This document shows positions 1-64,000 of a DNA stretch of 64,000 nucleotides, in pieces. Origin of the DNA: a virus (taxonomy: Duplodnaviria; Heunggongvirae; Uroviricota; Caudoviricetes); IMG/VR virus record IMGVR_UViG_2724679237_000005, positions 32,001 to 96,000 of that record; one strand, 5' to 3'. How positions within the stretch are numbered: the stretch's first letter is position 1; every line of letters begins with the position of its first letter. Position numbers and translations under genes: made by a program. The notes under the pieces were generated by a model that was given only the letters and a program-made list of their open reading frames with translations, did no database searches and was not told the origin of the DNA.

Positions 1-141
1 CACAGTTTCGAATATGGCACGAATAGCCAGACGAGCCTCTCGATCGCTCATAAGCGACCGGGAATGTTCGTCCGCTACACGAATCAAAGCCTCTGTTGTT
101 TTCCGATCCAGTTCATCTTCAAGCAACAGTTCACTAAACAT
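1..141 (-). CDS. hypothetical protein, N-terminal part only (gene runs off the window start)
   Basis: ATG at 139-141 on minus strand preceded by AAGGAT; frame open to position 1. Confidence 0.3.
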   Translation of the reverse strand, partial: MFSELLLEDELDRKTTEALIRVADEHSRSLMSDREARLAIRAIFETV

Positions 142-202
142 TTTTTATCCTTAACCCATTTTGAGAGTTTTATTGTCGCAATGTCGAAGAGGCGAACAAT
201 TT

Positions 203-847
203 CTAATGAACGGTTACTCGGCCACAGAAGCGGTTTTCTATCTTTTCTACCGCGTTATCGAGCATTCTCATCACTGATCTGGCTCTTGCTTCAACCGTGC
301 GATATCGGTTGGAAACGACGAAGGTTTGCAGATCTCCCCTTTGCGGATGCAGGTGAATTTTTGTCAGTTCCCCGCACATCAACGCATCAATACGAGCGAC
401 ATACAGACGGTCTAATGATGCTCGTTGTGATCGCAAGTAATCTCGCTCTGAGAGAGCGACTCCCGGGCGTAAGCCAGCAATGGCGTTAAAGTTTGAAATA
501 GCAGTTTTGTGGCAAAACTTTTCGATATCGAGGGCTAACTCAATACACCGATCTTCATTTGTATGGCCGACCAAATCCAACGTGTAGGCCATAACATCAG
601 CAGGTGTGCGATCGATAACAAAGCCTTCAACACCACGTGTAAGTAGCTCTATATGCTTTGCTATTTCCATTTGAATCTGAAGCCGCTCATATAGAGGCAT
701 AGACTCACCTACTCGAACACCGAGGCGGCTCATCAAACTTCCGACACCAGCATCCACGTAAGGGATTCCGTAATGTTTGTCGATATATTTAGCCAGGGTT
801 GTTTTCCCACTGCCCTGAGCACCAGTGATCCCAATCCGGTAATCCAT
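203..847 (-). CDS. P-loop nucleotide kinase (dNMP kinase-like)
   Basis: Walker A GITGAQGSGKTT near N-terminus; start overlaps DHFR stop; sits in nucleotide-metabolism block. Confidence 0.5.
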   Translation of the reverse strand: MDYRIGITGAQGSGKTTLAKYIDKHYGIPYVDAGVGSLMSRLGVRVGESMPLYERLQIQMEIAKHIELLTRGVEGFVIDRTPADVMAYTLDLVGHTNEDRCIELALDIEKFCHKTAISNFNAIAGLRPGVALSERDYLRSQRASLDRLYVARIDALMCGELTKIHLHPQRGDLQTFVVSNRYRTVEARARSVMRMLDNAVEKIENRFCGRVTVH

Positions 848-1323
848 TACGACCTTCTGTATACGATCTGCGAAAAGCCAGGCTCTTCCTCGCTGGCTCG
901 TTGGGTATAAGCTGTTTCAACAGGCACAAAGCCTAAGTTACGCATCATGCTTGCCGGGAAGAATGCATCAGCGTTTGGTACATCAACGCCGATGTGGGAG
1001 AGCCAAATCTCTTCAACATGCGGCATGAATAGCGAGTAAATTTGTTCCCCGCCAATCACCCACACAGGCTCTGGTAATCGCAACACATCATCCACACCAG
1101 CAGGGTAGAATCCATTTGGTACAAAGCCATGAGAGCGCGTCAAAACGAGGTTATGACGCTCTGGAAGAGGGCGTTTGAGACTTTCCATCGTTTTACGCCC
1201 CATAACGACAGTGGCGTTTTTGGTGAGTCTCTTAAATAGCTTCAGATCGGTAGAACAGCGCCAGGGCAGTTCGTTCGCTATGCCGATCTCATAGTTACGG
1301 CCAACAGCAGCTATCATCTTCAT
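847..1323 (-). CDS. frd: dihydrofolate reductase
   Basis: MIAAVGRNYEIG...ELPW N-terminus and GGEQIY motif typical of DHFR; GAGGTGA RBS. Confidence 0.8.
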   Translation of the reverse strand: MKMIAAVGRNYEIGIANELPWRCSTDLKLFKRLTKNATVVMGRKTMESLKRPLPERHNLVLTRSHGFVPNGFYPAGVDDVLRLPEPVWVIGGEQIYSLFMPHVEEIWLSHIGVDVPNADAFFPASMMRNLGFVPVETAYTQRASEEEPGFSQIVYRRS

Positions 1324-1733
1324 TTGCTCACCTCATAGATGACCGGTCTATGATGAGAGTCAGCTAAAGCGGCACGGAGTCGAGGATCGTGCACCAGCGC
1401 AGCGATAAGCAGATCGCCTTTATGCTCCGCTAATGTGCGTTTAATATGCTTCTCATAACTGGTGCTATTCGGTACGAGATGAAGCCAGTCGTAATCAACG
1501 CCAAAATCTTTCAGCCATCGTTTAGTGGGCGCTTCAAGAGTTTCAGAGCGGCTACTGATAAGCACCACTTCAGCCCCTGAGCGAGCAAAACCACGCAACA
1601 TACGGCTGGTGGGGAAAATGAGTTCATCACCGGCAATGAGCTGGCCTGCATCCGCGTCAGATACAGATTTACGATGGCTGGTATTTGCCAGCACACCTTC
1701 AATTTCGCATAAGACATACATACCTCTTGCCAT
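1320..1733 (-). CDS. hypothetical protein (weak HAD-like motif, catalytic Asp not conserved)
   Basis: ORF with ATG immediately after thyA stop; motif LCEIEGVL resembles HAD motif I with E in place of D. Confidence 0.4.
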   Translation of the reverse strand: MARGMYVLCEIEGVLANTSHRKSVSDADAGQLIAGDELIFPTSRMLRGFARSGAEVVLISSRSETLEAPTKRWLKDFGVDYDWLHLVPNSTSYEKHIKRTLAEHKGDLLIAALVHDPRLRAALADSHHRPVIYEVSK

Positions 1734-1734
1734 A

Positions 1735-2838
1735 TCACACCGCCACTGGAACCTTGATCCACGGTAGAGGGTCATAGCCAAGAATTAAAACCTCGTCCCA
1801 TTTGAAATCATCCAACTCTGACCATTCATGAGGGAAAATAACGACCGGATCTGAATGCTCTGGAGCCTGTCGTTTCATTAGCTCACACACACCTTCCATG
1901 TGGTTGTTGTACAAATGCACGTCAAAGCCAAAATGCACAAATGCACCGGCCATGTGACCCGTAATCTTCGCGAGAAAATGAGTGAGAATGCCATAGCCAG
2001 CAATATTGAATGGCATACCAACAAAAGTGTCTACGCTACGCTGTACGAGGCAGGAGTTGAGGATGCGTTTGGGGATTCCAAGTTCATCCAGTTCGGCTTC
2101 AGTAACACTGCCGTCCATCTCCAGATCGTATAGCATCTTGGTGTAGATAGACTCGTAACCGAGGCGACTGTGTTGAAGACCAATGTCAGTTGCCATCGTT
2201 AAACGGGTTTCAAAATCCAGCTCACGACTCCACAAAGAGAAGACAAAGTGGCAAGGTGGCAGCTTCATATCCTCAAGCTCGCCTACGTTCCATGCGTTAA
2301 GCATGATGCGACGATCGGTAGGGTTCGTGCGCAGTGTATCGACAATACGCTGTAGCTGATCGATTTCACGGGACAGCACTACGCGATCTTCACAGATACC
2401 CAGGTATCCCTCGACTTTGTACCCGCGTTCACGGAAAGTAGCGATCTTGCTCAGATATTCACTATGGCTCACGATGCGGGTATCTTCCCATCGACGCCAC
2501 TGCTTACCGTAAACCGGCCCCAAATCGCCATTCTCATCGGCCCATGCATCCCAAATCTTAACGCCGTTATCCTTGAGAAATTGGATGTTGCCCGTGCCTT
2601 TCAGATACCACTCAAGTTCGACAAGTAGTGGCTTAAGATTTACCGCCTTTCCAGAAATAAGCGGCACAGTCCCACCAGTAAGCATGTAGTAAGAGGGAAC
2701 GTAGCAGGTGCTTAAAGTACCAGTGCCTGTGCGATCATCAGCCTGCACGCCGCTTTTAAGCACCGTCTCAATAACTTTTGCATACGATGCGTTTGTTACC
2801 TGACCGTTCGTATGCTCACGATTCAAAAGGAGTGACAC
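1735..2838 (-). CDS. thyA: thymidylate synthase
   Basis: DRTGTGT, GPVYGKQWR, DRRIMLNAWN and LPPCH motifs; GTG start with GAGGT RBS. Confidence 0.9.
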   Translation of the reverse strand: MSLLLNREHTNGQVTNASYAKVIETVLKSGVQADDRTGTGTLSTCYVPSYYMLTGGTVPLISGKAVNLKPLLVELEWYLKGTGNIQFLKDNGVKIWDAWADENGDLGPVYGKQWRRWEDTRIVSHSEYLSKIATFRERGYKVEGYLGICEDRVVLSREIDQLQRIVDTLRTNPTDRRIMLNAWNVGELEDMKLPPCHFVFSLWSRELDFETRLTMATDIGLQHSRLGYESIYTKMLYDLEMDGSVTEAELDELGIPKRILNSCLVQRSVDTFVGMPFNIAGYGILTHFLAKITGHMAGAFVHFGFDVHLYNNHMEGVCELMKRQAPEHSDPVVIFPHEWSELDDFKWDEVLILGYDPLPWIKVPVAV

Positions 2839-2853
2839 AATAACCTCACAAAG

Positions 2854-2869
2854 ATAAGTAATTACTTAT
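2854..2869. promoter_or_regulatory. perfect 16-bp palindrome ATAAGTAATTACTTAT upstream of thyA (member of ACTTACTTAT motif family)
   Basis: read directly; 16 nt upstream of thyA start. Confidence 0.5.
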
Positions 2870-2912
2870 TCATTGCGTGAGTTTACATTTATTGAGGGGA
2901 CAAGGCCAGATA

Positions 2913-2945
2913 GATAAAAAAATGGTGGCCATAGGCCACCAAAAA
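2913..2945 (-). terminator. rho-independent terminator after NTP-pyrophosphatase gene
   Basis: 8-bp stem tggtggcc/ggccacca followed by T-run on minus strand. Confidence 0.55.
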
Positions 2946-3009
2946 CGAATAGTTGTTTCAGGAATTTAACGCGCCAACACAATATACATAGATAGATAAC
3001 TACCTACAA

Positions 3010-3879
3010 TTATTTTTTGATCATTCCATACATTGCTGAGGATTTAGCTTGCTCAACAAAGGAGGATAAATCGACATCACTATAGGTTGGAGACTTCAGA
3101 ATCTTTCCATCGGAAATTCGAAAACCGATCATCTTATCGGTGCCATCAGCATGGCGGAATCCCAGATCTGAAGAGTCGTATTTGCAGTTGGCCACAGCCT
3201 GGCGACGTTCCTCGACATCAGCAGGCCATAATTTTGTCATGTTCGACCGATGAATTTCGCCAACCAGCTCGACTACATTGATACCGAGGAAATCAGCCAG
3301 TCGATAGGTCATCATGCACGCCACATAGATTTTGTTCATGACACGGCGCAGTTCCTGAATCAGTTCAGAATCCTTAACAGTCTTGTTCTCAAGTTTATCT
3401 GCCAGCTCTTCGAGCATACATGACGCCTCACGAGCTTCCTGAAATGGCATTGCCATATCATCGAAAACAGTGTTACCGGGCACAAAAATTGTCTGCATAA
3501 AGCGATCAATGCTCTGTTCCTGCGTGTAATAGGTCATGCCGGTAGAAATACCACCTTTGATGGCGACCATCGTACCAACACCAACGTATAAAAAGTCGGC
3601 CATTGCATCCAGCAGTTGCTCAATATCCCCATTCATTGCGGCTGGAATACCTTCCACTACAGCTTCTTCATGAATCAGGCTTGCACGGAGACGAAGCAGC
3701 TCTGGTGTCGGCATAACGCGTCTCGGATGCTGGAAGAGTTCATGAAACTGATCGACCATCTTGTAAATACTTTCAGTAGCTACACCATGACCTTCATGCA
3801 ACTCATATGGTTCTGGCTTAAATCCAATGAGACGATCGGTGGCAAGTTTCAGGTGGTCAGTCAGTTTGGTAAAGTTCAT
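3010..3879 (-). CDS. putative all-alpha NTP pyrophosphohydrolase (MazG or dimeric dUTPase-like)
   Basis: EExxE-type acidic helical motifs (LIHEEAVVEG, MLEELADKLE); start reassigned to internal ATG with AAGGAA RBS because upstream part overlaps nrdB. Confidence 0.4.
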   Translation of the reverse strand: MNFTKLTDHLKLATDRLIGFKPEPYELHEGHGVATESIYKMVDQFHELFQHPRRVMPTPELLRLRASLIHEEAVVEGIPAAMNGDIEQLLDAMADFLYVGVGTMVAIKGGISTGMTYYTQEQSIDRFMQTIFVPGNTVFDDMAMPFQEAREASCMLEELADKLENKTVKDSELIQELRRVMNKIYVACMMTYRLADFLGINVVELVGEIHRSNMTKLWPADVEERRQAVANCKYDSSDLGFRHADGTDKMIGFRISDGKILKSPTYSDVDLSSFVEQAKSSAMYGMIKK

Positions 3880-3956
3880 GCTAGTTTTGTTCCTTCTTAA
3901 TTCTTGTGATCCATTGTGGCCCAGCGTTGCCAGGCCACATAATGCTTTGTATCGGT

Positions 3957-5099
3957 TTACAGGTCTGCAAACTGGCTTAGAGAAGCCTTGTCCACGGTAG
4001 AATCGATCTGACCTACCAGATATGTGCTTTGCTCTGCCTCTTGTGGTGCAATTTGCAGTGTGTCGGTTAACAACCACTTGTTCATCCAGACCAGCGGATC
4101 TGTGGTAACTTCTGGAAATAAAGCCTTCAGGCCAAGACGATTCATAGCCAGATTGGTTCGGTATTTTACATAGGTCTTCAGAATATCCGCGTTTAAACCA
4201 ATCATCGAACCGTCTTTGAAGAGATAGTCTGCCCAGTTCATTTCTTGTTCGGCGACTGATTTCATGGTGTCGTAAATGACGTTTTCTTCATCAGCAGCAA
4301 TCTCTTTCCACAATAAACCTTCGCGACCGGTACGCATGAAGCGGATCATGCGTTCAGTTCCTTCGCAATGCAGAGCTTCATCACGGGCAATAAAGCGCAT
4401 AATTTTGGTGTTACCCTCAAGCAACTTCCGTTCGCCAAAGGCAAACGTACATGCAAAACTTACATAGAAACGGATCGCCTCAAGCGCATTAATGGACACC
4501 AACGTGCGGAAAAGCTGACGGTGCAAAGGGTATGGCTCCCAGCCATATTCATTTACGTACAGACGTTCAAACTCTTTCTCACCTAACGACTGGCGCTCGC
4601 AGGTCATCCCATAAAGCCTGTCATATTCAGCAGAGATACTGATCGCTCGGTTGATGATTTCTTCATCCGTAACAATACCGTCAAAAACAATGCTCGGATC
4701 GTCCACCATGCCACGAATAATGTGGGTGTAGCTGCGGCTATGGATAGTCTCAGAGAAAGACCATGTTTCAACCCACGTTTCCAGTTCAGGAATAGAGATA
4801 AGCGGCAGCAGCGTTGCATTTGGGCTACGTCCCTGAACTGAATCGAGTAACGTTTGATAACGGAGATTGCTCAGAAAAATGTGACGTTCGTGGTCCCGCA
4901 GCTTCGTGTTGAAGTCGATACGATCGCTCGAAATATCAACTTCTTCCGGCCGCCAGAAGAAAGACAATTGACGTTCAATCAACTTTTCAAAATCACGGTA
5001 TTTTTGCTGATCGTAACGTGCCACGTTGACAGATTGTCCGAGGAACATAGGTTCTTTGGTTGCATCATTAGCACCCAAACGGAACGTTGAATATGACAT
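3957..5099 (-). CDS. nrdB: ribonucleotide reductase class Ia small subunit
   Basis: Strong resemblance to enterobacterial NrdB N-terminus ([31 protein letters not shown]); start at ATG 5097-5099 with AAGGA RBS. Confidence 0.9.
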
Positions 5100-5129
5100 G
5101 TGTTTTTCCTTTTGTTTTTTGATGTGTTT

Positions 5130-5148
5130 AAACAAGTTGTTATCTTAT
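5130..5148 (-). promoter_or_regulatory. conserved palindromic element AAACAAnTTGTTnTCTTAT (site 1, upstream of nrdB)
   Basis: motif recurs at 23251, 29287, 42815, 45744. Confidence 0.5.
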
Positions 5149-5166
5149 TTGTTTAAACAAGGCTTA

Positions 5167-5199
5167 CAAATCAAAGAGAAGGTGGGGATACACCCCACC
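5167..5199 (-). terminator. terminator after nrdA
   Basis: stem ggtgggg/ccccacc, then T-rich tract on minus strand. Confidence 0.5.
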
Positions 5200-5204
5200 A
5201 TATG

Positions 5205-7520
5205 TCAGATTTTGCAGGCTCCGTCGCACTCATCTTCTGGCTCGACGGCTACAGCTTGCGTCAGTGGATTCTGCGGTTCGTCGTCATCACGCTTTCCTGC
5301 CCCATCTCTGGTGTTGTGGTAGTAAAGCGTTTTAACTCCCATCTTGTAGGCGAGAAGCAAATCTGACAGTAGCGTCATCATTGGGACTTTATCGCCTTCA
5401 AAGCGAGAAGGGTCATAGTTGGTATTGGCTGAAATAGCCTGGTCAAAGAACTTCTGGATGATCGCCACCTTTGTCAGATAGCCGCGGTTGTCCGGCATAT
5501 CCCACAGGTATTCATACTGTTCCTTCAGTTTTTCAAACTCAGGCACGACCATCTTAACGATGCCGTCCTTAGAAGATTTCACCGACACCGGGCCACGAGG
5601 CGGTTCGATGCCGTTGGTGGAATTAGTGATCTGGCTGGAAGTCTCGCATGGCATTTGTGCCGTCAGTGTGGAGTTGCGAAGGCCGTATTTTGCAATACGT
5701 TCACGCAGTTCTTCCCACGGCATCTTTAACTCAAAGTTGGTTTCGCCACTTTCGTCTAATGAAGAACGGTAATGGTCGATCGGCAACTGACCAATTGCGT
5801 ACTTGGTCTGCTCAAACCAGTCACACTCACCTTTTGCTTCAGCAAGTCGGCAGCTGGCATCAAGAAGGTAATACTGGATAGCTTCGAACGTTTCATGCAC
5901 CAGTTTATTGCCAGCGGTATCAGAATAACGAACGCCATTCTTTGCCAGGTAATAAGCAAAGTTGGTTACACCAATTCCCAAGCTACGACGAGCTTTGGCA
6001 GGCACTTCGGCTGCCTCCATCGGATAGTCTTGATAATCCAGTAACGAATCCAGTGCAGCAACGGCATAGAACGCCACCTCTTTAAGAGACTCCAGTGAAC
6101 GGATAGCTCCGAGGTTAAAAGCGGATAAAGTGCATAGCGCGATCTCACCGTTCGGGTCGTCGGTAAATGCCAGTGGACGAGTGGGTAGAGTGATCTCCAT
6201 GCACAGGTTTGACTGGCGGACAGGTGCAAGAGCAGGAATGAAAGCGCCATGCTCATTAATATGATCTACGTTCGCAATATAAATTCGGCCCGTGGACGCT
6301 CGTTCCTGCATCAGAGATGAGAACAGCTCAATGGCAGGTACTGACTTCTTGCGAATTGAATCATCGGCTTCGTATTTATGGTACAGCTTTTCAAACAGCT
6401 CCTGGTCTGTGAAGAAGGCTTCGTACATATCAGGCACATCATGCGGGCTGAACAGAGTGATGTTCTCGCTTCTGACGAGTCGACGGTACATTAGACGGTT
6501 ACTCATGACGCCGTAATCAAGATGGCGAACGCGGTTTTCATCAATACCACGGTTATTTTTCACCACCAGCAGACTTTCAACTTCAAGATGCCATATCGGG
6601 TAAAACGCTGTTGCTGCGCCACCACGAACACCTCCTTGCGAGCAAGATTTAACAGCAGTCTGGAAATGCTTCAGGAATGGAATAACTCCGGTATGGGTGG
6701 CTTCACCATTGCGGATCTCGCTGCCCAGCGCACGGATACGGCCAAAACCAATACCAATTCCAGCACGACGTGAAACGTAGTCGATAATTGCGGCTGAAGC
6801 TGCACTAATCCCTTTCAGACTATCGCCAGACTCAATCAGCACACAACTGGAGAACTGACGGGTTGGAGTACGGACGCCGGCCATGATTGGTGTGGGCAGA
6901 GACAGTTTGAACGTACTTGTAACGTCATAGAAACCTTTGACCATCTCCATACGTGTTTTGCCAGCGCAGTCGTCTTCCCAATTCTGGAACAGACACATGC
7001 CCACCAGCATATAGATATGTTGCGGCCCCTCATGAATCTCACCAGTAACACGGTTTTGAACGAGGTATTTGCTTTGCAATTGCACCGTAGCCGCATAGCC
7101 AAAAAGATCGTCACGTTTAGGCTTAATGTAATTGCCGAGTTCTTCGATCTCTTCAAATGAATAATGTGTCAGCAAATCCTTGTCATAAACGCCCTTGTTA
7201 ACGTTCTTGATAATGTGTTGGTAGAAGTTCGGATAGTCGTAACGACCGAAGGCATCTTTGCGGATTTTAAAAATGTTCAGGCGGGCAGCCACCTGTGAGT
7301 AATTTGGTGCTTCTGGTGAGATCAAATCAGCGGCAGATTTAACCAAAGCCTCATGCAACTGGCTGGTGGTAATCCCATCAAAAATGCTGGCCGCAGCTCC
7401 CATTGCTACAGCGGATGCGCTTACACCACGAATGCCTTCTACGCCATACATTACGACGCGGTTGTATTTTTCTTCGGATAACGGCTCTGTTTGGCCGTTA
7501 CGTTTTACGATGCTTATCAT
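5205..7520 (-). CDS. nrdA: ribonucleotide reductase class Ia large subunit
   Basis: Near full-length similarity to NrdA incl. PTPIMAGVRTPTRQFSSCVLIE, CSQGGVRGGAAT and C-terminal CDGACKI. Confidence 0.9.
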   Translation of the reverse strand: MISIVKRNGQTEPLSEEKYNRVVMYGVEGIRGVSASAVAMGAAASIFDGITTSQLHEALVKSAADLISPEAPNYSQVAARLNIFKIRKDAFGRYDYPNFYQHIIKNVNKGVYDKDLLTHYSFEEIEELGNYIKPKRDDLFGYAATVQLQSKYLVQNRVTGEIHEGPQHIYMLVGMCLFQNWEDDCAGKTRMEMVKGFYDVTSTFKLSLPTPIMAGVRTPTRQFSSCVLIESGDSLKGISAASAAIIDYVSRRAGIGIGFGRIRALGSEIRNGEATHTGVIPFLKHFQTAVKSCSQGGVRGGAATAFYPIWHLEVESLLVVKNNRGIDENRVRHLDYGVMSNRLMYRRLVRSENITLFSPHDVPDMYEAFFTDQELFEKLYHKYEADDSIRKKSVPAIELFSSLMQERASTGRIYIANVDHINEHGAFIPALAPVRQSNLCMEITLPTRPLAFTDDPNGEIALCTLSAFNLGAIRSLESLKEVAFYAVAALDSLLDYQDYPMEAAEVPAKARRSLGIGVTNFAYYLAKNGVRYSDTAGNKLVHETFEAIQYYLLDASCRLAEAKGECDWFEQTKYAIGQLPIDHYRSSLDESGETNFELKMPWEELRERIAKYGLRNSTLTAQMPCETSSQITNSTNGIEPPRGPVSVKSSKDGIVKMVVPEFEKLKEQYEYLWDMPDNRGYLTKVAIIQKFFDQAISANTNYDPSRFEGDKVPMMTLLSDLLLAYKMGVKTLYYHNTRDGAGKRDDDEPQNPLTQAVAVEPEDECDGACKI

Positions 7521-7593: not shown

Positions 7594-8163
7594 TCAAATG
7601 AGAGACTTGAGAACATCGCGCACCTGGCGAAACTGATCCGTTTGCATACCGGTATGGATGGCAGCCACCGCATCAGCCAAATGTTCGTTTTTGTTCACGA
7701 GAACATCCTGTCCAGATTGCTTACGACGCAGCCACGGTGCTTTAGGGTGTTTTTTCGTAGCCCACTGGATAATCTCTTCTTTCGATGTAGTAAGTTTATT
7801 GCCGACAAAATGCTTAATTTCGTTTGGAGTAACCTGGATCAATGGCTTATCCACACACGCAAGTACACCGATACAAATACCGTAAGACGTCTGCGAACGA
7901 GAGTTTTGGCTCCCAACCGGTAGCTCACAAAAAACCATATTCGCCTTATCAATGATTGGCTTCGCAACACGCCATATTTCACTGGCACGGCGCAGATCGT
8001 CACTGTTCACACGAACGGTCTTTTTGTTACTCCCCGCTTTAGTCTCAACAAGAGTAAGGCCGTGAATCTCAAGTTCGTCCGTTTCAAGGTCTAAAGTGCC
8101 CACAGCAAGCCCAAAGTTGCTCATCGAGGGATCAACACCAACTACGCTGATTTTTTTACTCAT
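7594..8163 (-). CDS. RuvC-like Holliday junction resolvase
   Basis: N-terminal VVGVDPS acidic motif and C-terminal EHLADAVAAI resembling RuvC DAADALA motif; AAGGAGA RBS. Confidence 0.5.
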   Translation of the reverse strand: MSKKISVVGVDPSMSNFGLAVGTLDLETDELEIHGLTLVETKAGSNKKTVRVNSDDLRRASEIWRVAKPIIDKANMVFCELPVGSQNSRSQTSYGICIGVLACVDKPLIQVTPNEIKHFVGNKLTTSKEEIIQWATKKHPKAPWLRRKQSGQDVLVNKNEHLADAVAAIHTGMQTDQFRQVRDVLKSLI

Positions 8164-8172
8164 ATAGTCTCC

Positions 8173-8916
8173 TTACCATGTTCCCCATAGAGGGTTTTCC
8201 AATAATCTCGCCTCCAACGAATTGGCTACTATTGCCGTTTGCAACGTTGGTTGGGGATAGTTTGCAAAGTCTGAATACTCATTTTCCTGCGTGACACGTT
8301 TATCTACGGCATGTTTAACGCCACTTGCTATGAAATGACGCATGATGCCCAACAGCCTCCGACTGTCTGCACTATCGTTTGCTAAAACATGAGGGAGCTG
8401 AAGTTCGATTTCTACCATTTCTCCATACTTACCAACAAACTGTAGTTTGTCCGCACTGTACTTTTTATCCCTCCTTTGGATAAGGAAACCAGTAAAAGCA
8501 TCACCTGGCGATGCCAAACTATCCACCCGCTTATTGGCAAGTCGAATAAGGTTCGTGAAAGCCATACAGTGATGCGCACCCATTCCCCCAAAGAACCCTT
8601 CGCTATTAATGTTAAGATCTTCAGTTTCATGGGATGCAATAAACCCAGGCCCGACGTTGGGAAGATATCCCCCCTCAACAAAAGGATTAATCAGGATCGG
8701 CGCAATACATCCAGGTGGTAGTGATTTCAAACTTTGCATCAATGGCGTCTCGGATATTAGACCAAGCAACGCGGCGAATTGTACTCCGTCAATATTGTTG
8801 CTGCCCCACAGAATACGTGGAGCCGCACCATTGGAAGTATGCCCATTGATCAGTTTTATCGACTGCATCACTGCAAATACCTGCAAAAACTGCGAGCGGC
8901 TTAATTTAAACGACAT
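8173..8916 (-). CDS. hypothetical protein
   Basis: 247-aa ORF overlapping sbcC-like stop by 11 nt; no recognisable motif. Confidence 0.5.
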   Translation of the reverse strand: MSFKLSRSQFLQVFAVMQSIKLINGHTSNGAAPRILWGSNNIDGVQFAALLGLISETPLMQSLKSLPPGCIAPILINPFVEGGYLPNVGPGFIASHETEDLNINSEGFFGGMGAHHCMAFTNLIRLANKRVDSLASPGDAFTGFLIQRRDKKYSADKLQFVGKYGEMVEIELQLPHVLANDSADSRRLLGIMRHFIASGVKHAVDKRVTQENEYSDFANYPQPTLQTAIVANSLEARLLENPLWGTW

Positions 8917-57200: not shown

Positions 57201-59024
57201 ACCCGGCGTTTCCCCCTGCGCGATGTTAACGATGCGAACGCGCATAGGTTCGAGATCTGGTTCTGTAATTGTCCAGACACCGTTCAAAACAGGCGTTTCC
57301 GCTGACGACAGGGCTTTTGAAAACGTAACCTTTGTTATGTTTTCGCCAGTTTCAAGAACATCGCGTTCAACGATTTTGCCTTCCTGATTCAATATCCGAA
57401 TAAAGCTGCCGCTTTTAGCTAACGACACAGGCGCATCGAGAGTGATGCTGTTTTTGGTAAACTCCACAATTCGACCGGAGTTACGTTTACCTGCACGATA
57501 TTTGTTCTGAATCAGAACGGTTTCACCAGGCATCAGAAATGAGGCGTCTAAGCCGGCAGTAAATGTAATTACATCCGACTCCATTCTGGCGGTATACAAA
57601 AGCCACAAACCAACTCGGTGAGCCTGGCCTCGGCTTGTACATCCAAATGCTACGACTTCTGTTTTACGCTCACCATAACGGCGCATTGCGTCCTGATCTT
57701 CAACGTATTCGATGTTTTGCTTATAACCGTCCTCCTTGTTGTTGTAGGTTACGAGCGCAACGGATGGGCGATCTTTACGCGCAGAACCTTTATAGGTAAA
57801 CAGTCCATCTTTGACGTTGGAGTTGGTAAACATCATTACCGGATCTGATGGGCTATCCTGCATGATGTTAACCATGCCACCAGCCCAAAACACCATGCCG
57901 CGGAATGCACCGGCAATATCCTGAATTAATCGGTATGCGTCTTGTCGACTGGTGATCTGCGTATTGATTGCAAAGCGTTTCTCTTTACCCCCAAAGCCAT
58001 CATCGACCTCTTCGTCACAATATCGACCAATCTGGTAGAGCTGGCCGAGGTCAATCATGGATTCCGACACAAATTGCCCAAGACCATACCGAGTATTGGT
58101 AAGCAAATCGTAGAGAATCCACGCAGGGTTTGAAGAAGACAACAGCTTAAAAGTACCGTCCCATACGCCGACATAAGTATTGGTGTATTCGTTGTAGTTT
58201 GACGGTACTCGGATTTTGATACCGCGCACCAAATACGAACGGGAAGGCATTGTGCTACCAAACTGCTCTGAATTGACCTTCAAGCCAACAAGAGCAGAGT
58301 TAGGGTAGTTCATTGGCGTGTCGACAATCTCACCTATGGAATCAACCCATGTGTCGTTGTAGAGGTACTGGCTACTGTTATCATCTGTAAGACGAATCAC
58401 CCTAACCTTGTATGCACGACCAGGCTTAGGTAGTTTCAGCTCATAGCTACGGTAATACACGCCTGTTTTCTTTGCCGTTAGCGTGATATCAACGCTTTTT
58501 TCACCTTCAGCGACCACATCTACAAATGTTGAGTCGCCATTTGCTATCTGGAACTTGTACTCAACAGTCGTACCGTTCGTGTCACCAGTTTTTTTATCTA
58601 TGCTTCGCAAAGAAGGAAACTTCATGATGACACGAACCCGATCAGCTTCATCGTTATCGATTGAAACCGTTACATAATGTGTTTTTTTTAACTGGATATT
58701 GACGGATTTAGGCGTTTCAACGAAATCAAAGCCAGACATTGGAGTCTGGTCTTGTGAACCGTCGCGAAAATCCCATGTGATTCCGCTGAAGTTGGAGGAA
58801 CCGTCTTCATTTACAATCGGCAGATCGTCGATAAAAATAGATCTTGCGCCATTTACTAAGCCGCCAATTACCCCTTCCCCAAGAAGATCGAGGATAGCGG
58901 CCATTGCACGAGAATTTACGGTATCGTCGGCTTCAACCGGTGTACGGCTGGAGCTTTTGCTGCTTTTTTTACCACCCGCACCGGCAATAAACAGCGGTAG
59001 CTTTTTCTTCTTGAACTGTTCCAT
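54297..59024 (-). CDS. lambda J-like tail tip / host-specificity protein with internal coiled-coil repeat array
   Basis: N-terminal half collinear with J-type central tail fiber proteins; position after I/K/L/M homologs; start at ATG 59024. Confidence 0.8.
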   Translation of the reverse strand: MEQFKKKKLPLFIAGAGGKKSSKSSSRTPVEADDTVNSRAMAAILDLLGEGVIGGLVNGARSIFIDDLPIVNEDGSSNFSGITWDFRDGSQDQTPMSGFDFVETPKSVNIQLKKTHYVTVSIDNDEADRVRVIMKFPSLRSIDKKTGDTNGTTVEYKFQIANGDSTFVDVVAEGEKSVDITLTAKKTGVYYRSYELKLPKPGRAYKVRVIRLTDDNSSQYLYNDTWVDSIGEIVDTPMNYPNSALVGLKVNSEQFGSTMPSRSYLVRGIKIRVPSNYNEYTNTYVGVWDGTFKLLSSSNPAWILYDLLTNTRYGLGQFVSESMIDLGQLYQIGRYCDEEVDDGFGGKEKRFAINTQITSRQDAYRLIQDIAGAFRGMVFWAGGMVNIMQDSPSDPVMMFTNSNVKDGLFTYKGSARKDRPSVALVTYNNKEDGYKQNIEYVEDQDAMRRYGERKTEVVAFGCTSRGQAHRVGLWLLYTARMESDVITFTAGLDASFLMPGETVLIQNKYRAGKRNSGRIVEFTKNSITLDAPVSLAKSGSFIRILNQEGKIVERDVLETGENITKVTFSKALSSAETPVLNGVWTITEPDLEPMRVRIVNIAQGETPGSFDITAVENNPSKYEAIDNGATLIPQNTTVLDPTYSKPSNLQITEGTYLSSPGNLSVKLTATWEGKSPEYWISWRRSDENNVSNWQSARVTEEQYEIVNVAENGRYDFQLYAVSFNGKKTEIISTVYQVLGTMTPPDAPTSLTAVGDYRNVILNWVNPDSVDLDHINVYASQTNNLDTAKLIAESASTTFTHAGLGDSETWYYWVRASNKRGMLSPPNSNLGTEATTRDVLSFLAGKITSSELGQALLEDINSKASQEAVDELNEHINQSVESLEGSVNDVKEDIAELDKQFSDNLAGFEIKFNERSDALENAQTELKGEVSATIDKVNEAFEKIDATDAAIVEIENTVSEHDKALANTVEAIKAARDEAAALIAKESEARVEGDAANAKQLEVLQSTVEESSAAVEEMKKTVAEVDRASAELTTNIEALAKTNIDLALRQDEDQHKQMVNNAKIATTQKTFADDMSAMATKVEEIRVEIGEDIKASILEESTARADGDEALAKRVTQLQSKFEGDISAAISTEQEARTSADEALTTQITQLESKVSNDIVAAIKEEQEARATEDSALASQITQLQAKVDDDISAAIRSEQEARASGDSALAKQINQLQSKVDGDISAAITQEQEARASADQALSREINSLRAQTGTDIAAAVAVETKARTDADSALSTQISSLTAKANDLEASLARETTARADGDTALTKEVSSLKAQTAKDISAAVAVETQARTDADSALSSQITKLTSQYKEDIKAAVATETKTRTEQDAALATQITNLESQTAANISAAVTTETTARTQADNALSGRIDTLKAEVDGNTATIQQQATAIADTNKKVSTAWTLKMETSTSGGQKYVAGIALGIDTTGLSQFLVQADRFGLVNSVNGKITTPFVIENSIAYMNGAYIKDGTITNAKVGDLQSTNFVSGRSGWRFGKNGTLEINGNSGGNGRLVINGQRIDVYDDNNVLRVRIGLL
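54920..56030. repeat. about 11 tandem 99-bp (33-aa) coding repeats within J-like gene
   Basis: periodic DISAAI..EQEAR..AD.AL..QI.QL units; DNA periodicity visible. Confidence 0.6.
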
Positions 59025-59041
59025 GTTCAAAAAATCCTTGT

Positions 59042-59635
59042 TTACATTAGCTGGTCAATCGTGATTGAAGAACTCACAACCTGTGAGCCAACCAGAATTT
59101 CCTCGCCATAGATAAGTTGTACTGGGTTGCCCTGGTTTTCTGTATTTTGAGGGCCGTCGAAATAATAAGAGTTCGAGTTATCTGCCTGTCTCACACTTTC
59201 GTTAGTGGCTTGCGGCGATATGATTTGTGATATGCCGCCCATCATCAGTGACAAACCGAGAGGTGCTAAAGCAGGCATCACTACCGCCGATACAACCAAC
59301 AAAGCGGCCCCTACTACCGTCTGAAACCACCCAAAAGCAGATCCACCGCTTCCTCGCGGAACAGGTGTAATGCGGATTTTGGCAATGTTGTCAGACTGCC
59401 CCATCATCTGATATTCACTCTCGTCCACAGACCACTTGTGGCCCTGTTTATTGGTGATCTGGATGTGGTATCTGTCATAGGTTTTGATGTTGCGCTTCAT
59501 CCATGCTTTAAACCCTGGCTTGTTGGCCTCAATTAAATCCAGAGCCTGTTTTGTATTGCGCACCTTTAGATGCCAGTGGCGGCCAAAATGTTTGGCCATA
59601 GGGCCGCCAAGCTGCACATGAACTAACTCAGACAC
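59042..59635 (-). CDS. tail assembly protein I-like
   Basis: position between K-like and J-like genes; hydrophobic C-terminal half; GTG start. Confidence 0.55.
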   Translation of the reverse strand: MSELVHVQLGGPMAKHFGRHWHLKVRNTKQALDLIEANKPGFKAWMKRNIKTYDRYHIQITNKQGHKWSVDESEYQMMGQSDNIAKIRITPVPRGSGGSAFGWFQTVVGAALLVVSAVVMPALAPLGLSLMMGGISQIISPQATNESVRQADNSNSYYFDGPQNTENQGNPVQLIYGEEILVGSQVVSSSITIDQLM

Positions 59636-60420
59636 GTCTCATCTCCCTTGAGCAAGTCTCTGTGACGCAAGTGATGCGTCGTATGTTTCTGATACATCCC
59701 GCCGTAATAAGCACGACAACTAAGGCGGTCGATCTGGTGATGAAGAATCATTCCATCGCCGATATAAACCGCACAGTGGTCAGGCATTTTTCCGTATTGG
59801 ATAAAGAAGACGTCCCCACGTTGAGGTTCTGTTCCGGACGCAAGCCGTACCAATCCTTCGTTTCGGTAGTTCTGATCGAGAATGTCGTTATCGCCGGTGT
59901 ACCACGATGGAATATGCAGGTGTGCGTTCGGGTTTAGTTCGACGTTAAACTCACGCTTCAAATAGTCCCGACACAACATCCAGCAATCAAATACGCCAAA
60001 TACATACGGTCTGCCCAGGTATGGCATTTCGAAACCATCAGGTGTGATCACATTCATCTCGCTAAAATGGAAAGGGGCATCTCCCTCAACATTCTTGCGA
60101 ATAGCCAGAATCATCCACGGAACTTCCGTCGCTTCGCAGCCTGCACGATCGGCATAAGATGCTTCTGCTGATTCATCAGTATGTGAATGCCAGATTGCGA
60201 TAACATCACCCGCATCCTCTGCCGCCATAATGTCGTCAACGTGCATTACAAAAGTGTTCTGCGGGTTCTCCGAAACATTCCGCGCTTCCATAAAGCGATA
60301 TTTGTCGCCATTAGTTCTAACCAGAAAGCCACACGCTTCATTAGGGTAGCGATTTATGGCGCAGAGATAGATTTGCTGCATAACGTCAGAGCCAAGCTCA
60401 GGGATTGCTTTATTACCCAT
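59623..60420 (-). CDS. tail assembly protein K-like (MPN/JAB + NlpC/P60 domains)
   Basis: HSHTDESAEAS (JAMM-like) and Cys/His NlpC-like motifs; start overlaps L stop. Confidence 0.75.
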   Translation of the reverse strand: MGNKAIPELGSDVMQQIYLCAINRYPNEACGFLVRTNGDKYRFMEARNVSENPQNTFVMHVDDIMAAEDAGDVIAIWHSHTDESAEASYADRAGCEATEVPWMILAIRKNVEGDAPFHFSEMNVITPDGFEMPYLGRPYVFGVFDCWMLCRDYLKREFNVELNPNAHLHIPSWYTGDNDILDQNYRNEGLVRLASGTEPQRGDVFFIQYGKMPDHCAVYIGDGMILHHQIDRLSCRAYYGGMYQKHTTHHLRHRDLLKGDETCLS

Positions 60421-61111
60421 ACCGCGTAGCTCCAATAAATCCGCCAAAATGGATCACACCGTCGGCAAAATAATTCCGACGCGCATTACAGGCGTCATAA
60501 CGTTTTGTGCAGTAATCCGCACCAGACATAGACGTCTGCTGGTTATTTTTGTCGAAATATGGACCGGTATAGCCGCATTCTGGCCCTCGGTATTTCCACG
60601 GGCAGGTGTTTTTAATGATCTGACGATACGGCAGTTGCACCCCCATCAAATCGAACACACTGGACAATTCAAACTCGACAACCTGATGAGTTTCGAGAGT
60701 TTTCTGTTCGATAAACCACATTTCATCCGGAAAATGTTGGTTTGGATCTGCTGTTGGGTTGCCGTCTTTAAAATTAACGGCATCGAGGAAGCGAGCCAGC
60801 GTCATCTTGCGAATAATGCGGCAGCCAACAAGATCGTCGTTCGCCTGAACTTCCGCAGAGACGGTTCCGGCAAAGTTCGATACCTGAATTTTTGGACGTG
60901 GCAACGTTCCCTGGCCAGTTTTGTCAAAGCCTGATGCTTTGATTGGCCACGGCTCGTATGTCACTCCTTGCCAGACGACCGGTTGCATCAGTTCGTTTGT
61001 TCCGGCGTGGAAGAATAGCTTTCCCCCTGAAGTTGTGTTCGACATATCCAATACGAACAACTCAATGAGTGCAGAGGGAGATAAGCTCTGAATATCAGCT
61101 TTAATTCCCAT
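60413..61111 (-). CDS. minor tail protein L-like
   Basis: VVWQGVTYEPWPIKASGF, RFLDAVNF, NTCPWKYRGPECGYTGP match lambda L; AAGGA RBS. Confidence 0.85.
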   Translation of the reverse strand: MGIKADIQSLSPSALIELFVLDMSNTTSGGKLFFHAGTNELMQPVVWQGVTYEPWPIKASGFDKTGQGTLPRPKIQVSNFAGTVSAEVQANDDLVGCRIIRKMTLARFLDAVNFKDGNPTADPNQHFPDEMWFIEQKTLETHQVVEFELSSVFDLMGVQLPYRQIIKNTCPWKYRGPECGYTGPYFDKNNQQTSMSGADYCTKRYDACNARRNYFADGVIHFGGFIGATRYG

Positions 61112-61193
61112 TGTTTCATCCTTGAAATAAGTAGGCGCTAACATCCTGTCAGCGCCACAATGATAGTAAATTAGTACTTACTTATCCAGATGC

Positions 61194-61529
61194 TTAAGCC
61201 TCAAATACTTGTCTGAATGTGGCAGTTAAGACACAGTACCCCTGATATCGCTTGACCGTATGACTGTCACATACAACTACAATCTGCTTGCCTCTTGGAT
61301 TAACCCAATAGAACGATTCAACACCTGATCGCTCAGTCAGGAAGTCATCGATTGCATTAATTTCGTTGTATGATCTGGTAAAGGTTAACGACCATTCTTC
61401 TTTAATACGATTAAGACCTTGAGCCTGTCGCTGCTCGTAGTCATCACCAAAATTAAGTACCGTTACATTCGGTTTTACGCTCTTTTCAGATTCGTAATCT
61501 GGATACCAATTAAACGTTTGTCTTTCCAT
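61194..61529 (-). CDS. minor tail protein M-like
   Basis: about 110-aa protein immediately upstream of L-like gene, downstream of tape measure. Confidence 0.65.
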   Translation of the reverse strand: MERQTFNWYPDYESEKSVKPNVTVLNFGDDYEQRQAQGLNRIKEEWSLTFTRSYNEINAIDDFLTERSGVESFYWVNPRGKQIVVVCDSHTVKRYQGYCVLTATFRQVFEA

Positions 61530-61571
61530 CTCACATCCTTGTGAGACTGCCCCGGTCGGGGCAGTCGATAG

Positions 61572-64000
61572 TTAGTTACGTTGAGTGTTTGGGTTGAGTG
61601 ATCCGCCAGGGCGTTTCTCTTGAGCGATAGTCTCAAGCGCGATTGCTTTCATCCGTTGAGCGGCATTGTTCCATATGCTTTCTGTATCGCCGGATTCTGT
61701 CGTGCTACCGTCACTATGGACGTTGATCTCAATTGATACAGGAGAAAGAACATTTCCGCCTCCACTCATACCATCGGTACTGAGCGTTACAGGGATTGTT
61801 CGGCCATCAGGCAATGGAACATACGCCTCATTCATAGAACCTTCCCCAAACAACGCTAATTGAGGCGAGTTAGCAATACCGCCTTTCTGGTATGCCCGGA
61901 GCGGGATCACGCCGTCTTTTCCGAATATTCCTCCATTTGCAAACTTCGGGATTGCAGGAATGCCTTTAGTTCCGTCAGCCACACTGCTGGTTGCGGTTTT
62001 AGCAGAGCTTGATGTCACGCTGTCGAAACCACCGCCAGTCCAAGCTGAAACAAGACCAGATGCAACCGTTGCTCCAAAACTCAACCACTTATTACCAGAG
62101 CCGGAAGCATTAGCTCCAAGCATTGCAAACGCGGCAGACAGAGCGCCGGTAACAGAGCTGAGGTTCTGCATCGAGAAGATGGAGTCCTTCACTGCTTTTG
62201 TCTCAGCATCTTTGGCTTCGGTGCTATCAAATAGCCCCGATACCCAGCTACCAATCGCATTTGTTGCAGTGCCAATTGCGCTGGTGGTCTGCTGTGTTGT
62301 TTGCCCCAATCCAGTTACCGAACTGGACGTCTCCTTCGTGGCTTCTCCTACTGACTTGTCGCCGTTAACAGTGTTGCCCATTCGTACCCCTTGATTGGCA
62401 ACGGCGGAAGCAACCCCGGCCAGCAAATTACCACTCTGTGAACTACCAGCTGCGGTGGTTCCCATCCCCAACATGTTCATTAGAGGCAGCGTGATCTGCG
62501 ACTTCACGACCATATTGGTGATATCTTTCAAAATGGACTGAGACAGGCTGGAGAAGCTCATCTTCCCGTTAATAACGAAATCAGTCAGGACATCAGTTAA
62601 GCCACTAAACAAATCAGTCCAGGTGCTTTCGATCTGCTCTGCCAAGTTTTCGTATTCCAGTGCCAACTTCTGCGTCGCAATCCCCGTCTCTTTAATAAGC
62701 GCGGTATTGCCAGCAGCAATAAGTTGATTGATTTTCTTTGTATAAAGCGCCACGACTTTAGGATCAGACGCCTTATCACGAAGTTCTATCAACGCTTTGA
62801 GATTGCGGTTGTAAGTGTCTTCGAAATCAGCAACTTTCTCTTCACGAGACGGCGTATAGCCAGCACTAATAATGGAATCCGCCTCCGGTGCCCAAGTGGA
62901 GATCATCTGCTCAACATTGCGGCGATTAAACATCTCGCGATATTCAGGTGTCGCATTTTTGAGGTCTTCAAGACGTTTTTTCGCCTTGTCGATCATCTCT
63001 TGAGTGATGAACTCGTTAGGAATCGCATTAGCCAAATCAGTTAGCGATTTTGTTGTATCGCGAAGAGACTGATCAAACGATACCGTAGCCTTAGAGCTTT
63101 CACCCATTTGCCCCATAAGCTGATCGGCTTTATCCAGAGCCTTCTGATATCCGGCCGCCAGTTTCTGTTGCGCTGCCTGTTCTTTCTTGGCCGCACGCTG
63201 CGAGGCATTAGCTGATCGTTGGGCTGCTTTCTCGGCGGCTGCGGCATCCTGTTCACGAGCTTTAGTAAGTGCGGCAATGGCTGCGGCACGCTCTTCATCG
63301 CTCATTTTCTCCAGAGAGCTGGCACTGGATGCTTTCTGCAAATTAAGCTGCGTCTTGAGTTGTTTAGGCCCAATAATCGGCTTACCTTCGAAGTCCATCA
63401 TCGGAGTGCCGTCAGGCAAAGTACGTTGATAAGTCGCAGAATCCATCTGGTTTCGCATATATTGCGCCAGCGCCTTCTGAGCAGCTTTATCAGTTGTACC
63501 TAACCCCAGAACAGTCCCCTGGTTTGACATTACGCCCTTACCAGTTTTGGCAGCGTTATCTCTCTCGAACTCTGCCTGAGTCAGTTCCTGAGCGACGACT
63601 TCCAAATTCTCCTGATAACCACGAATACTGCCTTGCAGTTTCTTGATCTGCTCGGTGTTTCCTTCCTTTTTCGCTTTTTCAAGCTGATCATTAAGAGTGG
63701 CTATTTGCCCCTCGACAGCATTCTTACGAGAAGAAAGTGAATCAACCAGTTTTTGCGCAGGCTCCAGATAGCTTTTGTTTACCGTTTCACGTAACGGTGC
63801 CAATAGCTTGTTCTTTTCGTCATCTGAAAGTGAACCGTCATCATTGATTTTCTGGATCTTATCCAGAGCCTCCTGCCGGGCTTTCACGAATGTTGCCGCA
63901 AAGTCTCTATTCTCTTCCCGTATTTTCTCTATCTGTGATTCTGCCGCATCTTTTGCAAGACGTTTGGCTACAGCAATGTCTCCGCGTTCAATTGCCCCAG
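61572..64000 (-). CDS. tail tape measure protein, C-terminal part (gene continues past window end)
   Basis: long helical Ala/Gln/Lys-rich protein upstream of M/L/K/I/J; frame stays open to position 64000. Confidence 0.7.
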   Translation of the reverse strand, partial: GAIERGDIAVAKRLAKDAAESQIEKIREENRDFAATFVKARQEALDKIQKINDDGSLSDDEKNKLLAPLRETVNKSYLEPAQKLVDSLSSRKNAVEGQIATLNDQLEKAKKEGNTEQIKKLQGSIRGYQENLEVVAQELTQAEFERDNAAKTGKGVMSNQGTVLGLGTTDKAAQKALAQYMRNQMDSATYQRTLPDGTPMMDFEGKPIIGPKQLKTQLNLQKASSASSLEKMSDEERAAAIAALTKAREQDAAAAEKAAQRSANASQRAAKKEQAAQQKLAAGYQKALDKADQLMGQMGESSKATVSFDQSLRDTTKSLTDLANAIPNEFITQEMIDKAKKRLEDLKNATPEYREMFNRRNVEQMISTWAPEADSIISAGYTPSREEKVADFEDTYNRNLKALIELRDKASDPKVVALYTKKINQLIAAGNTALIKETGIATQKLALEYENLAEQIESTWTDLFSGLTDVLTDFVINGKMSFSSLSQSILKDITNMVVKSQITLPLMNMLGMGTTAAGSSQSGNLLAGVASAVANQGVRMGNTVNGDKSVGEATKETSSSVTGLGQTTQQTTSAIGTATNAIGSWVSGLFDSTEAKDAETKAVKDSIFSMQNLSSVTGALSAAFAMLGANASGSGNKWLSFGATVASGLVSAWTGGGFDSVTSSSAKTATSSVADGTKGIPAIPKFANGGIFGKDGVIPLRAYQKGGIANSPQLALFGEGSMNEAYVPLPDGRTIPVTLSTDGMSGGGNVLSPVSIEINVHSDGSTTESGDTESIWNNAAQRMKAIALETIAQEKRPGGSLNPNTQRN

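Follow-up and report, generated by a model that had tools for sequence, protein, structure and literature searches.

The 64,000-nt window analysed here (positions 32,001 to 96,000 of the IMG/VR virus record IMGVR_UViG_2724679237_000005; all coordinates below are those of the window) is, with a probability that we put at about 0.93, part of a phage-plasmid of the SSU5 supergroup, belonging to its Escherichia coli lineage and to the pSLy3 type, in which the prophage is the low-copy circular plasmid of a temperate siphovirus. It covers roughly 60% of the element and ends at neither end of its molecule. The sequence is densely packed with about 63 genes, 58 of the 63 curated ones lying on the minus strand; along its length the G+C content is 39-53% and the cumulative GC skew falls steadily. 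Genes for plasmid replication and partition occur together with tail and lysis genes in this one 64-kb stretch. A preliminary description made from the letters alone had proposed a mostly single-strand array of an SSU5/pHCM2-type phage-plasmid, and both proposals held once databases were searched; the assignment itself is to a type of element already known and well described.

In megablast searches of phage records, each third of the window matched Escherichia phage Cyrano (OV696614) at 96-97% DNA identity over 70-87% of its length and Salmonella phage SSU5 at 78-80% identity with 47-81% coverage, with Klebsiella SSU5-like phages ranking next. Among the plasmids of PLSDB, 79 span at least 80% of positions 25001-50000; these come mostly from E. 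coli, the best of them being circular and 100-120 kb long, and 1,303 of the 1,366 plasmids that match the window are classified as non-mobilizable. The region encoding the polymerase matched 245 of 5,426 complete E. coli genomes (4.5%) in 256 places, all of them on plasmids and none on a chromosome. The database comparison that the preliminary description had suggested thus returned as best matches phage-plasmids of the SSU5 type together with circular E. coli plasmids that are non-mobilizable, rather than a chromosomal prophage. No identical record emerged; among E. coli plasmids the best matched 95% of positions 30000-50000 at 97.3% identity.

The relationship extends to gene order and protein sequence. 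In SSU5, 53 of the 63 window genes are collinear (identity-weighted relatedness 0.67), and the encoded proteins are mostly 70-96% identical. A protein-by-protein comparison with Cyrano showed that the common genes are full-length, with 72-100% amino acid identity (most 97-100%), the exceptions being a truncated stomatin-like gene, a diverged RepA allele and a variable tail-fibre tip. Both repA and parA are intact, with no sign of pseudogenisation in either, and neither attachment (att)-like junctions nor host genes were seen anywhere in the 64 kb. Cyrano is the plasmid pLF82 of E. coli LF82; each cell contains 5.5 copies, ciprofloxacin induces the element 39-fold, and siphovirus particles with large heads are associated with it (PMC9928086). 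The SSU5 supergroup was defined by Pfeifer et al. and comprises the SSU5_pHCM2, pKpn, pSLy3 and pMT1 groups, mostly typed as IncFIB (PMC7969092); pSLy3 is listed as the E. coli type, of 85-134 kb, by tyPPing (PMC12977533), and a 2025 survey recorded elements of the SSU5 group in clinical Escherichia and Shigella (bioRxiv 10.1101/2025.09.12.675607).

The plasmid side of the element is most clearly seen in its replicon. The RepA initiator, of the Rep_3 or RepFIB-P1 type, is encoded on the plus strand at 13358..14452 (Rep3_N, E = 5e-9; start codon inferred), and its gene lies between two arrays that together comprise 17 iterons of about 20 nt (consensus GTATGCTGYCAGCGGT). A repeat search placed five of these, spaced 21-23 bp apart and resembling incC, upstream at 13236..13341, and twelve, all in the same orientation and resembling the incA copy-control array, downstream at 14452..14987 (both plus strand). 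The upstream set is preceded by an oriR-like leader (13113..13235, plus strand), recognised by direct reading and by side-by-side comparison with P1 oriR, that contains tandem 9-mers resembling DnaA boxes (13115-13131) and six GATC sites within 60 bp (13137-13195). The iteron-flanked repA of the preliminary description is therefore confirmed by both the repeat count (5 upstream, 12 downstream) and the Rep3_N domain.

This arrangement follows the element order of P1, for which the annotation (AF234172) gives a DnaA box, five Dam sites, five incC iterons, repA and nine incA iterons. RepA itself is 43.5% identical to the RepA of P1/P7 over 79% of its length (tblastn, E = 1e-64), and when the two origin leaders are printed side by side they have strings in common, e.g., TATCCAC-GGATAGATCC and GATCG-TG-A-GCCGC-CCACG-CTGG. 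The iteron reads GTATGCTGYCAGCGG in the window and GATGTGTGCTGGAGGG in P1, and the downstream iterons number 12, all direct, in the window, as compared with 9 in both orientations in P1. The replicon is thus P1-type by descent, homologous in sequence as well as in layout, and we infer that it works as in P1, with the origin opened by RepA and DnaA and copy number controlled by the downstream array.

The replicon also departs from that of the closest phage relative of the window. RepA is 99.7% identical to its counterparts in CMS-2020a and PhiR41_1 and 87.5% identical to those of Klebsiella elements, as compared with 48-50% identity to those of SSU5 and Cyrano, and positions 13225-15013, spanning the entire RepA/iteron module, had no DNA match to Cyrano by blastn. 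This looks like a replicon swap relative to Cyrano, and the RepA allele of the window probably represents a different incompatibility type. Two RepA/iteron alleles about 48% identical, carried on E. coli backbones that are 97% identical, are a likely basis of incompatibility switching.

Segregation is predicted to depend on a partition operon at 44681..45708 (minus strand), 30 kb from repA. Its first gene (45040-45708, minus) encodes a ParA of 222 aa, a small Walker-type protein without the N-terminal DNA-binding domain, whose best solved relative in the PDB is ParF (E = 3e-10); it matches nearly the whole NCBIfam ParA_partition model at E = 2e-33, a score that lies below the family cut-off. 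On sequence grounds the system is ParF-like, type Ib. The translationally coupled partner, a protein of 119 aa (44681-45040, minus), is a putative centromere-binding protein restricted to SSU5-type elements, with a disordered, Arg/Pro-rich and basic N-terminal tail (residues 1-45) and predicted helices; these traits, together with its position and coupling, would suit a ParG-type partner. No ParB-family partner was found, and phmmer, a profile built from 12 sequences and Foldseek gave no significant match of the 119-aa protein to ParG or a ribbon-helix-helix protein in the PDB. A weak match, below cut-off, links it to the archaeal cell-cycle regulator family aCcr1 (E = 2e-4), which we take to be a ribbon-helix-helix family. 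The AlphaFold2 model of the monomer is weak (mean predicted local distance difference test score, pLDDT, 63), and a ribbon formed between molecules is beyond the reach of a monomer model. Of the parA/parG-like pair named in the preliminary description, the ParF-like ParA with its coupled 119-aa open reading frame (ORF) is present, while neither sequence nor fold identifies the partner as ParG. The label 'toxin' given to the partner's homologue in Cyrano is unsupported, with no RelE or ParE signal. A repeat search of 44550-46000 around parA found no convincing repeat array, its only feature being a perfect 12-bp hairpin (44645-44675) downstream of the operon.

The window also encodes a tyrosine recombinase and a regulator. 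The recombinase (30212..31315, minus strand; Phage_integrase and Phage_int_M domains) belongs to the lambda/Gifsy-type integrase family. Its remote relatives are lambdoid integrases, its counterparts in Klebsiella phage-plasmids are 82% identical, and no solved chain, that of Cre included, matched it at E <= 0.01. Convergent with it lies a gene for a helix-turn-helix (HTH) regulator (29831..30217, plus strand; phrog_8, transcriptional regulator), a putative lysogeny repressor whose Cyrano homologue CYRAN_45 is annotated as 'putative repressor' and is expressed in lysogens (PMC9928086 and the Cyrano record). The 'P1-style maintenance core' proposed earlier accordingly applies to RepA, oriR and the iterons and does not extend to partition, which is type Ib, or to the recombinase, which is of the lambda type.

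Upstream of int we found a compact control region (31342..31446, minus strand) that combines a LexA box, a promoter and a palindrome. The LexA box, a perfect TACTGT-N8-ACAGTA at 31342-31361 that did not arise in any of 100 shuffles, overlaps a promoter (TTGATC-17-TAATAT) that lies 27 nt ahead of the start of int, and this leftward promoter is predicted to be SOS-controlled. About 50 nt further upstream, the lox-like palindrome (31414-31446) has perfect inverted arms of 13 bp around a 7-bp spacer. Both the LexA box and the palindrome are kept in the Klebsiella phage pJN2-26 (integrase 82% identical), where the spacers and flanks have diverged. A 12-mer from the arms, ATGATTCCATAC, occurs in five exact copies in the window (25384, 31415, 31434, 34249 and 35261) against an expectation of 0.008, and three of these copies share the extension ATC-W-CAT, giving the longer motif ATGATTCCATACATCWCATWG. 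We suggest that ATGATTCCATAC is a protein-binding site, which may serve as a core site of the recombinase or as a scattered operator.

Several points weigh against the assignment to an active phage-plasmid. The half of the element that should carry head, portal and terminase genes lies outside the window, so that the completeness of the phage cannot be judged here, and the circularity and copy number of this molecule are not visible in its sequence, the circular state being known from relatives. No centromere repeats were found near parA, and the roles of the recombinase, palindrome, LexA box and HTH protein are predictions. The genes for int, the HTH protein and glutaredoxin are missing from the stretch of SSU5 between 10 and 77 kb, and int had no tblastn match in the whole SSU5 record; because SSU5 lacks them in that stretch, these genes are not universal in the family. 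In addition, failure to be packaged or induced has been reported for some SSU5-like plasmids: a table in PMC12977533 lists one pSLy3 element as not found packaged, and the Klebsiella SSU5-like plasmid p2 is reported as not behaving like an intact prophage (PMC8969562).

The last two reports would fit a defective, domesticated phage-like plasmid that still replicates and segregates but has lost the ability to form infectious particles, as would the HNH gene that interrupts the replicative polymerase, the truncated stomatin-like gene and the position of the head and terminase genes beyond the window. Nevertheless, the tail, lysis and replication genes of the window are all full-length and encode proteins 72-100% identical to those of the inducible Cyrano, and both pieces of the interrupted polymerase are under strong purifying selection (dN/dS, the ratio of nonsynonymous to synonymous substitution rates, of 0.02-0.07), making such a plasmid an unlikely, if the most serious, competitor. 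A strictly lytic SSU5-like phage, in which the plasmid-like genes are relics, is suggested by SSU5 itself, which was isolated as a plaque-forming phage and is without int and the HTH gene in the stretch read; this is very improbable given the int/repressor module, the intact replicon with its 17 iterons and the par operon of the window, and given that its nearest relatives are resident plasmids of hundreds of isolates. Hardly credible at all is a chromosomal prophage that uses its integrase instead of a plasmid state: a lambda-family integrase with the central domain is indeed encoded, near a cluster of tRNA genes, but all 256 matches found in complete E. coli genomes lie outside the chromosome, the P1-type replicon and the partition operon are intact, and the 64 kb contain neither att-like junctions nor host genes.

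We therefore favour a temperate phage-plasmid, for which the following life cycle can be proposed, its plasmid-state steps being drawn from homology. In the plasmid state, RepA would bind the five origin iterons next to the DnaA boxes and the cluster of Dam-methylated GATC sites, and theta replication would start there, while the twelve downstream iterons would titrate or handcuff RepA, restricting copy number in the manner of P1 incA. The ParF-like Walker ATPase and its small partner would segregate the plasmid copies, the tyrosine recombinase would probably act at the palindrome, some 100 bp upstream of int, to resolve multimers, and the HTH repressor would hold the lytic genes off. DNA damage, as shown for the 97%-identical Cyrano, would lead to lytic growth, with the LexA box on the int promoter suggesting one direct SOS input. 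Lytic replication would be carried out by the element's own replisome, composed of a two-piece DnaE, a DnaB-like helicase, primase, a gp32-type single-stranded DNA-binding protein (SSB), ligase and a flap endonuclease (FEN), joined by T4-like recombination (RecA/UvsX, UvsY, SbcCD and RuvC) and fed by its own supply of deoxynucleoside triphosphates (dNTPs) through NrdAB, ThyA, DHFR, MazG and glutaredoxin. The resulting virions would carry a side fibre and a tail tip resembling that of lambda (M, L, K, I and J), and would be released by a holin-endolysin-spanin cassette.

The polymerase in this scheme has an unusual structure. The preliminary description had listed a DnaE-type polymerase, which is present, although in two pieces arranged around an HNH ORF (21336..25648, minus strand). 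The N piece (23285-25648, minus), with PHP, palm and fingers, is equivalent to residues 1-781, and the C piece (21336-22505, minus), with a helix-hairpin-helix motif and a family-4 uracil-DNA-glycosylase-like domain in its C-terminal third (TIGR00758, E = 5e-8), to residues 785-1166. Between them, an HNH_3/NUMOD3 endonuclease of 244 aa is encoded at 22502-23236 (minus), its stop codon overlapping the start of the C piece. In contrast, a single uninterrupted DnaE of 1,168-1,172 aa is encoded by Cyrano, SSU5 and the majority of E. coli relatives. Four other plasmids that were examined have the same arrangement of three intact ORFs, and in their records the Prokaryotic Genome Annotation Pipeline (PGAP) calls the C piece a pseudogene.

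Comparison of split alleles from five plasmids gave dN/dS values of 0.04-0.07 (N piece) and 0.02-0.06 (C piece), with dS reaching 1.3. Even on polymerase backgrounds about 1.3 apart in dS, the HNH genes are near-identical (dS 0.006-0.06), and none of the phage records searched carries the HNH gene. A group I intron was rejected as the source of the interruption, since Rfam gave no hit at E <= 1 over 22200-23600 and only 48 nt are non-coding, and so was an intein, because the N piece stops 6 residues past the end of homology and the HNH gene has its own start and stop. These patterns fit a functional two-piece DnaE and a recently spreading HNH endonuclease; the polymerase of this sub-lineage may work as a DnaE of two subunits, the product of an HNH homing endonuclease whose spread through E. 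coli phage-plasmids continues. A similar case is nrdA/mobE of Aeromonas phage Aeh1, in which an essential gene was likewise cut into two retained ORFs by a free-standing endonuclease (PMC3045599); what differs here is the target, a DnaE-type polymerase of a phage-plasmid, and the HNH_3/NUMOD3 type of the endonuclease. A literature search of incomplete coverage, and hence weak as evidence of novelty, found no description of the DnaE split. The polymerase, divided by a mobile endonuclease, is annotated as a pseudogene by PGAP, yet it is clearly under selection.

A second candidate for novelty, and the most novel lead among the features of the window, lies beside the tRNA genes. ARAGORN and Rfam identified genes for tRNA-Ser(tga), Thr(tgt), Tyr(gta) and Asn(gtt) at 33401..34054 (minus strand), and upstream of them the gap 34055-34832 contains no ORF of at least 80 aa and has several long inverted repeats. 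The minus strand of this gap folds with a predicted energy of -165.6 kcal/mol (z = -6.8). Across seven genera, 773 PLSDB plasmids carry the segment at 78-80% identity, most of the match being free of annotated coding sequence, its conservation spanning Escherichia, Salmonella, Enterobacter, Klebsiella, Cronobacter and the Yersinia plasmid pMT1, and an exact 19-mer from it is present in 94 IMG/VR contigs. Rfam searches of the whole window at the gathering score and of 33150-34900 at E <= 5 returned only tRNAs and noise.

In an alignment of 10 sequences, RNAalifold predicted 127 pairs with an energy of -131 kcal/mol, as compared with -104.5 for the reverse complement, and compensatory double changes occurred at 14 pairs, against 6.4 +/- 1.7 in shuffles (0/500) and 0-4 in slid controls. 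With 26 sequences, 99% of the alignment cells pair and 50 cells carry double changes, against 13.5 +/- 2.6 in shuffles (0/500) and at most 13 in slid controls; relatedness among the sequences inflates these shuffle tests, and the 5' third of the candidate is invariant and so carries no covariation information. Because many of the invariant pairs are G.U, the RNA strand is taken to be that of the downstream tRNA genes, and a closing helix, from which the ends were inferred, delimits a domain of about 520 nt (34263..34781, minus strand). A protein-coding reading was rejected, as no frame is open across the gap and the length of most indels is not divisible by three, a check that a short ORF on either strand would escape. 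A scan for promoters and terminators over 29.2-35.7 kb found fewer sites than expected by chance and was uninformative.

We propose tentatively, at a little short of even odds, that positions 34263-34781 encode a structured RNA of about 520 nt that is conserved throughout the SSU5 supergroup and lies outside the Rfam families. Its genomic setting, phage-borne and by tRNA genes, is the same as that of GOLLD and ROOL. No description of an RNA in this gap was found in the literature search, whose incomplete coverage makes this weak evidence of novelty. If the proposal is true, a large conserved RNA by tRNA genes would offer a new handle on phage-plasmid biology.

For the replication and metabolic genes, profile searches agree with the preliminary description on nrdAB, thyA, DHFR, polymerase, helicase, primase, ligase, a RecA-like protein, SSB, FEN, SbcCD and the CobS/CobT-like pair. 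All of the genes listed in this paragraph, with one exception, are on the minus strand. A nucleotide-supply block (203..7520; Pfam), with 99-100% amino acid identity to Cyrano and 81-91% to SSU5, comprises an AAA/kinase-like gene (203-847), DHFR (847-1323), a PNK-phosphatase-like gene (1320-1733), ThyA (1735-2838), a MazG-like pyrophosphohydrolase (3010-3879), NrdB (3957-5099) and NrdA (5205-7520). ThyA matches PF00303 in two stretches separated by an insertion; the 'ThyX' label on its 99.7%-identical homologue in the Cyrano record is an annotation error, since PF00303 denotes ThyA. Recombination nucleases follow at 7594..12137 (PHROG, Pfam and the Cyrano annotation), namely a RuvC-like resolvase (7594-8163), a hypothetical protein (8173-8916), SbcC-like (8906-10822) and SbcD-like (11052-12137) proteins. 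A further block (17286..21183; Pfam and PHROG) encodes a RecA/UvsX-like protein without an intein (17286-18359), then, after a small ORF, a 5'-3' exonuclease/FEN (18628-19572), a gp32-like SSB (19633-20661) and a UvsY-like protein (20779-21183). Cyrano RecA (18359-20698 in the Cyrano sequence) carries a 410-aa insertion, probably an intein, that is missing from the RecA of the window; on the N-terminal side of the insertion site, identity between the two proteins drops from 98% to 86%. A CobS-like AAA_5 ATPase (25829-27064) and a CobT/VWA protein (27160-29268) were recognised by Pfam. Finally, a replisome block with conserved hypothetical genes (35644..43579; Pfam and comparison with Cyrano and SSU5) contains an ATP-dependent ligase (35644-36966), a DnaG/Toprim primase (40190-41305) and a DnaB-like helicase (41453-42793), and is interrupted by an accessory Sel1-repeat gene on the plus strand (39053-40198).

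The tail, side tail fibre and lysis genes named in the preliminary description are all present by Pfam and PHROGs, again on the minus strand. The tail region (54297..64000; Pfam, PHROGs and ORF check) continues from the tape measure gene into homologues of M, L, K, I and J, ordered as in lambda: J (54297-59024) with FNIII-A_GpJ, Phage-tail_3 and tail-tip domains, and I, K, L and M (59042-61529) recognised by phrog_32 (I), NlpC/P60 and JAB (K), Phage_tail_L and Phage_min_tail (M). The tape measure is likewise there as described, except that its gene runs off the window, leaving the C-terminal 808 aa (61572-64000, open to the window edge). The side tail fibre (49906-54204) carries a Gp34 trimerisation domain and an S74 chaperone domain, and its tip differs from that of Cyrano and matches other coliphages. 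Directly downstream of the fibre gene, two small membrane or outer-membrane proteins (48983-49845) may have receptor-blocking functions; they are homologues of SSU5_023 and SSU5_024, which are neighbours of the Cor superinfection-exclusion gene of SSU5. The lysis cassette (47245..48660; PHROGs, Cyrano annotation and identity) includes an endolysin (47631-48323), a holin (48337-48660) and Rz1/Rz spanins.

Segments of the window unmatched by blastn against Cyrano mark the variable spots of the backbone. Beyond the replicon, these are 16571-16839, a lambdoid segment replacing most of the stomatin-like gene; 22456-23405, the HNH insertion; 31783-33222, with a 420-aa ORF; 33503-33977, including an extra tRNA-Tyr; 38345-40205, with the Sel1-repeat protein; 43761-44682, with a PD-T4-3 gene; 45816-47249, where two ORFs of unknown function replace the KacT toxin-antitoxin pair of Cyrano; and 48742-51675, covering the fibre tip and the two small membrane proteins. 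At 16571-16989 just the first 50 codons remain of the stomatin-like gene present in Cyrano and SSU5, and the 216-bp segment in place of the rest is 88% identical to the lambdoid phages HK630 and mEpX2.

The PD-T4-3-type GIY-YIG anti-phage defence gene (43861..44628, plus strand; PADLOC E = 1.3e-23, near full length; LEM-3 GIY-YIG) sits in a variable hotspot between the helicase block and the par operon; it is not found in Cyrano or SSU5, and the same spot holds other genes in Cyrano and pTW10722. PD-T4-3 defence genes were reported within the E. coli clade of the SSU5 group in the 2025 survey (bioRxiv 10.1101/2025.09.12.675607). For the 420-aa ORF (31946-33208, plus; phrog_18168, no Pfam hit) and the ORF pair at 45885-47005 (minus; phrog_3307 and phrog_2594, with SSU5 counterparts 33-37% identical), searches of Pfam, PADLOC and NCBIfam were empty and only function-unknown PHROGs matched. 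Cyrano carries HicAB and KacT toxin-antitoxin pairs that are missing from the window, which in their place has PD-T4-3, the Sel1-repeat gene, the 420-aa ORF and the extra tRNA-Tyr.

Among clinical Enterobacteriaceae, phage-plasmids of the SSU5 type are common; annotation often mistakes them for cryptic plasmids, and both resistance and defence genes are found on them. To the known picture of these elements the window adds as refinements a P1-homologous replicon with a swapped allele, a ParF-type partition system and an integrase missing from SSU5, while a few of its smaller features seem undescribed so far.

The window resembles P1 in its replicon. P1 places parAB-parS (type Ia) directly after incA, whereas the ParF-like type Ib operon of the window lies 30 kb away, and P1 is a myovirus with Cre/lox, whereas in the window no Cre/lox homologue was found and the tail is that of a lambda-like siphovirus. 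SSU5 and S. Typhi pHCM2 have the same replication, recombination, dNTP, partition, lysis and tail modules as the window. In the stretch read (10-77 kb), however, SSU5 is without the integrase, HTH repressor, glutaredoxin, HNH, PD-T4-3 and Sel1 genes, its fibre and the distal part of J differ, and its RepA is only 49% identical. Closest of all is Cyrano, with which the window has in common its gene order, ParA and its partner, the int/repressor pair, and the tail and lysis genes.

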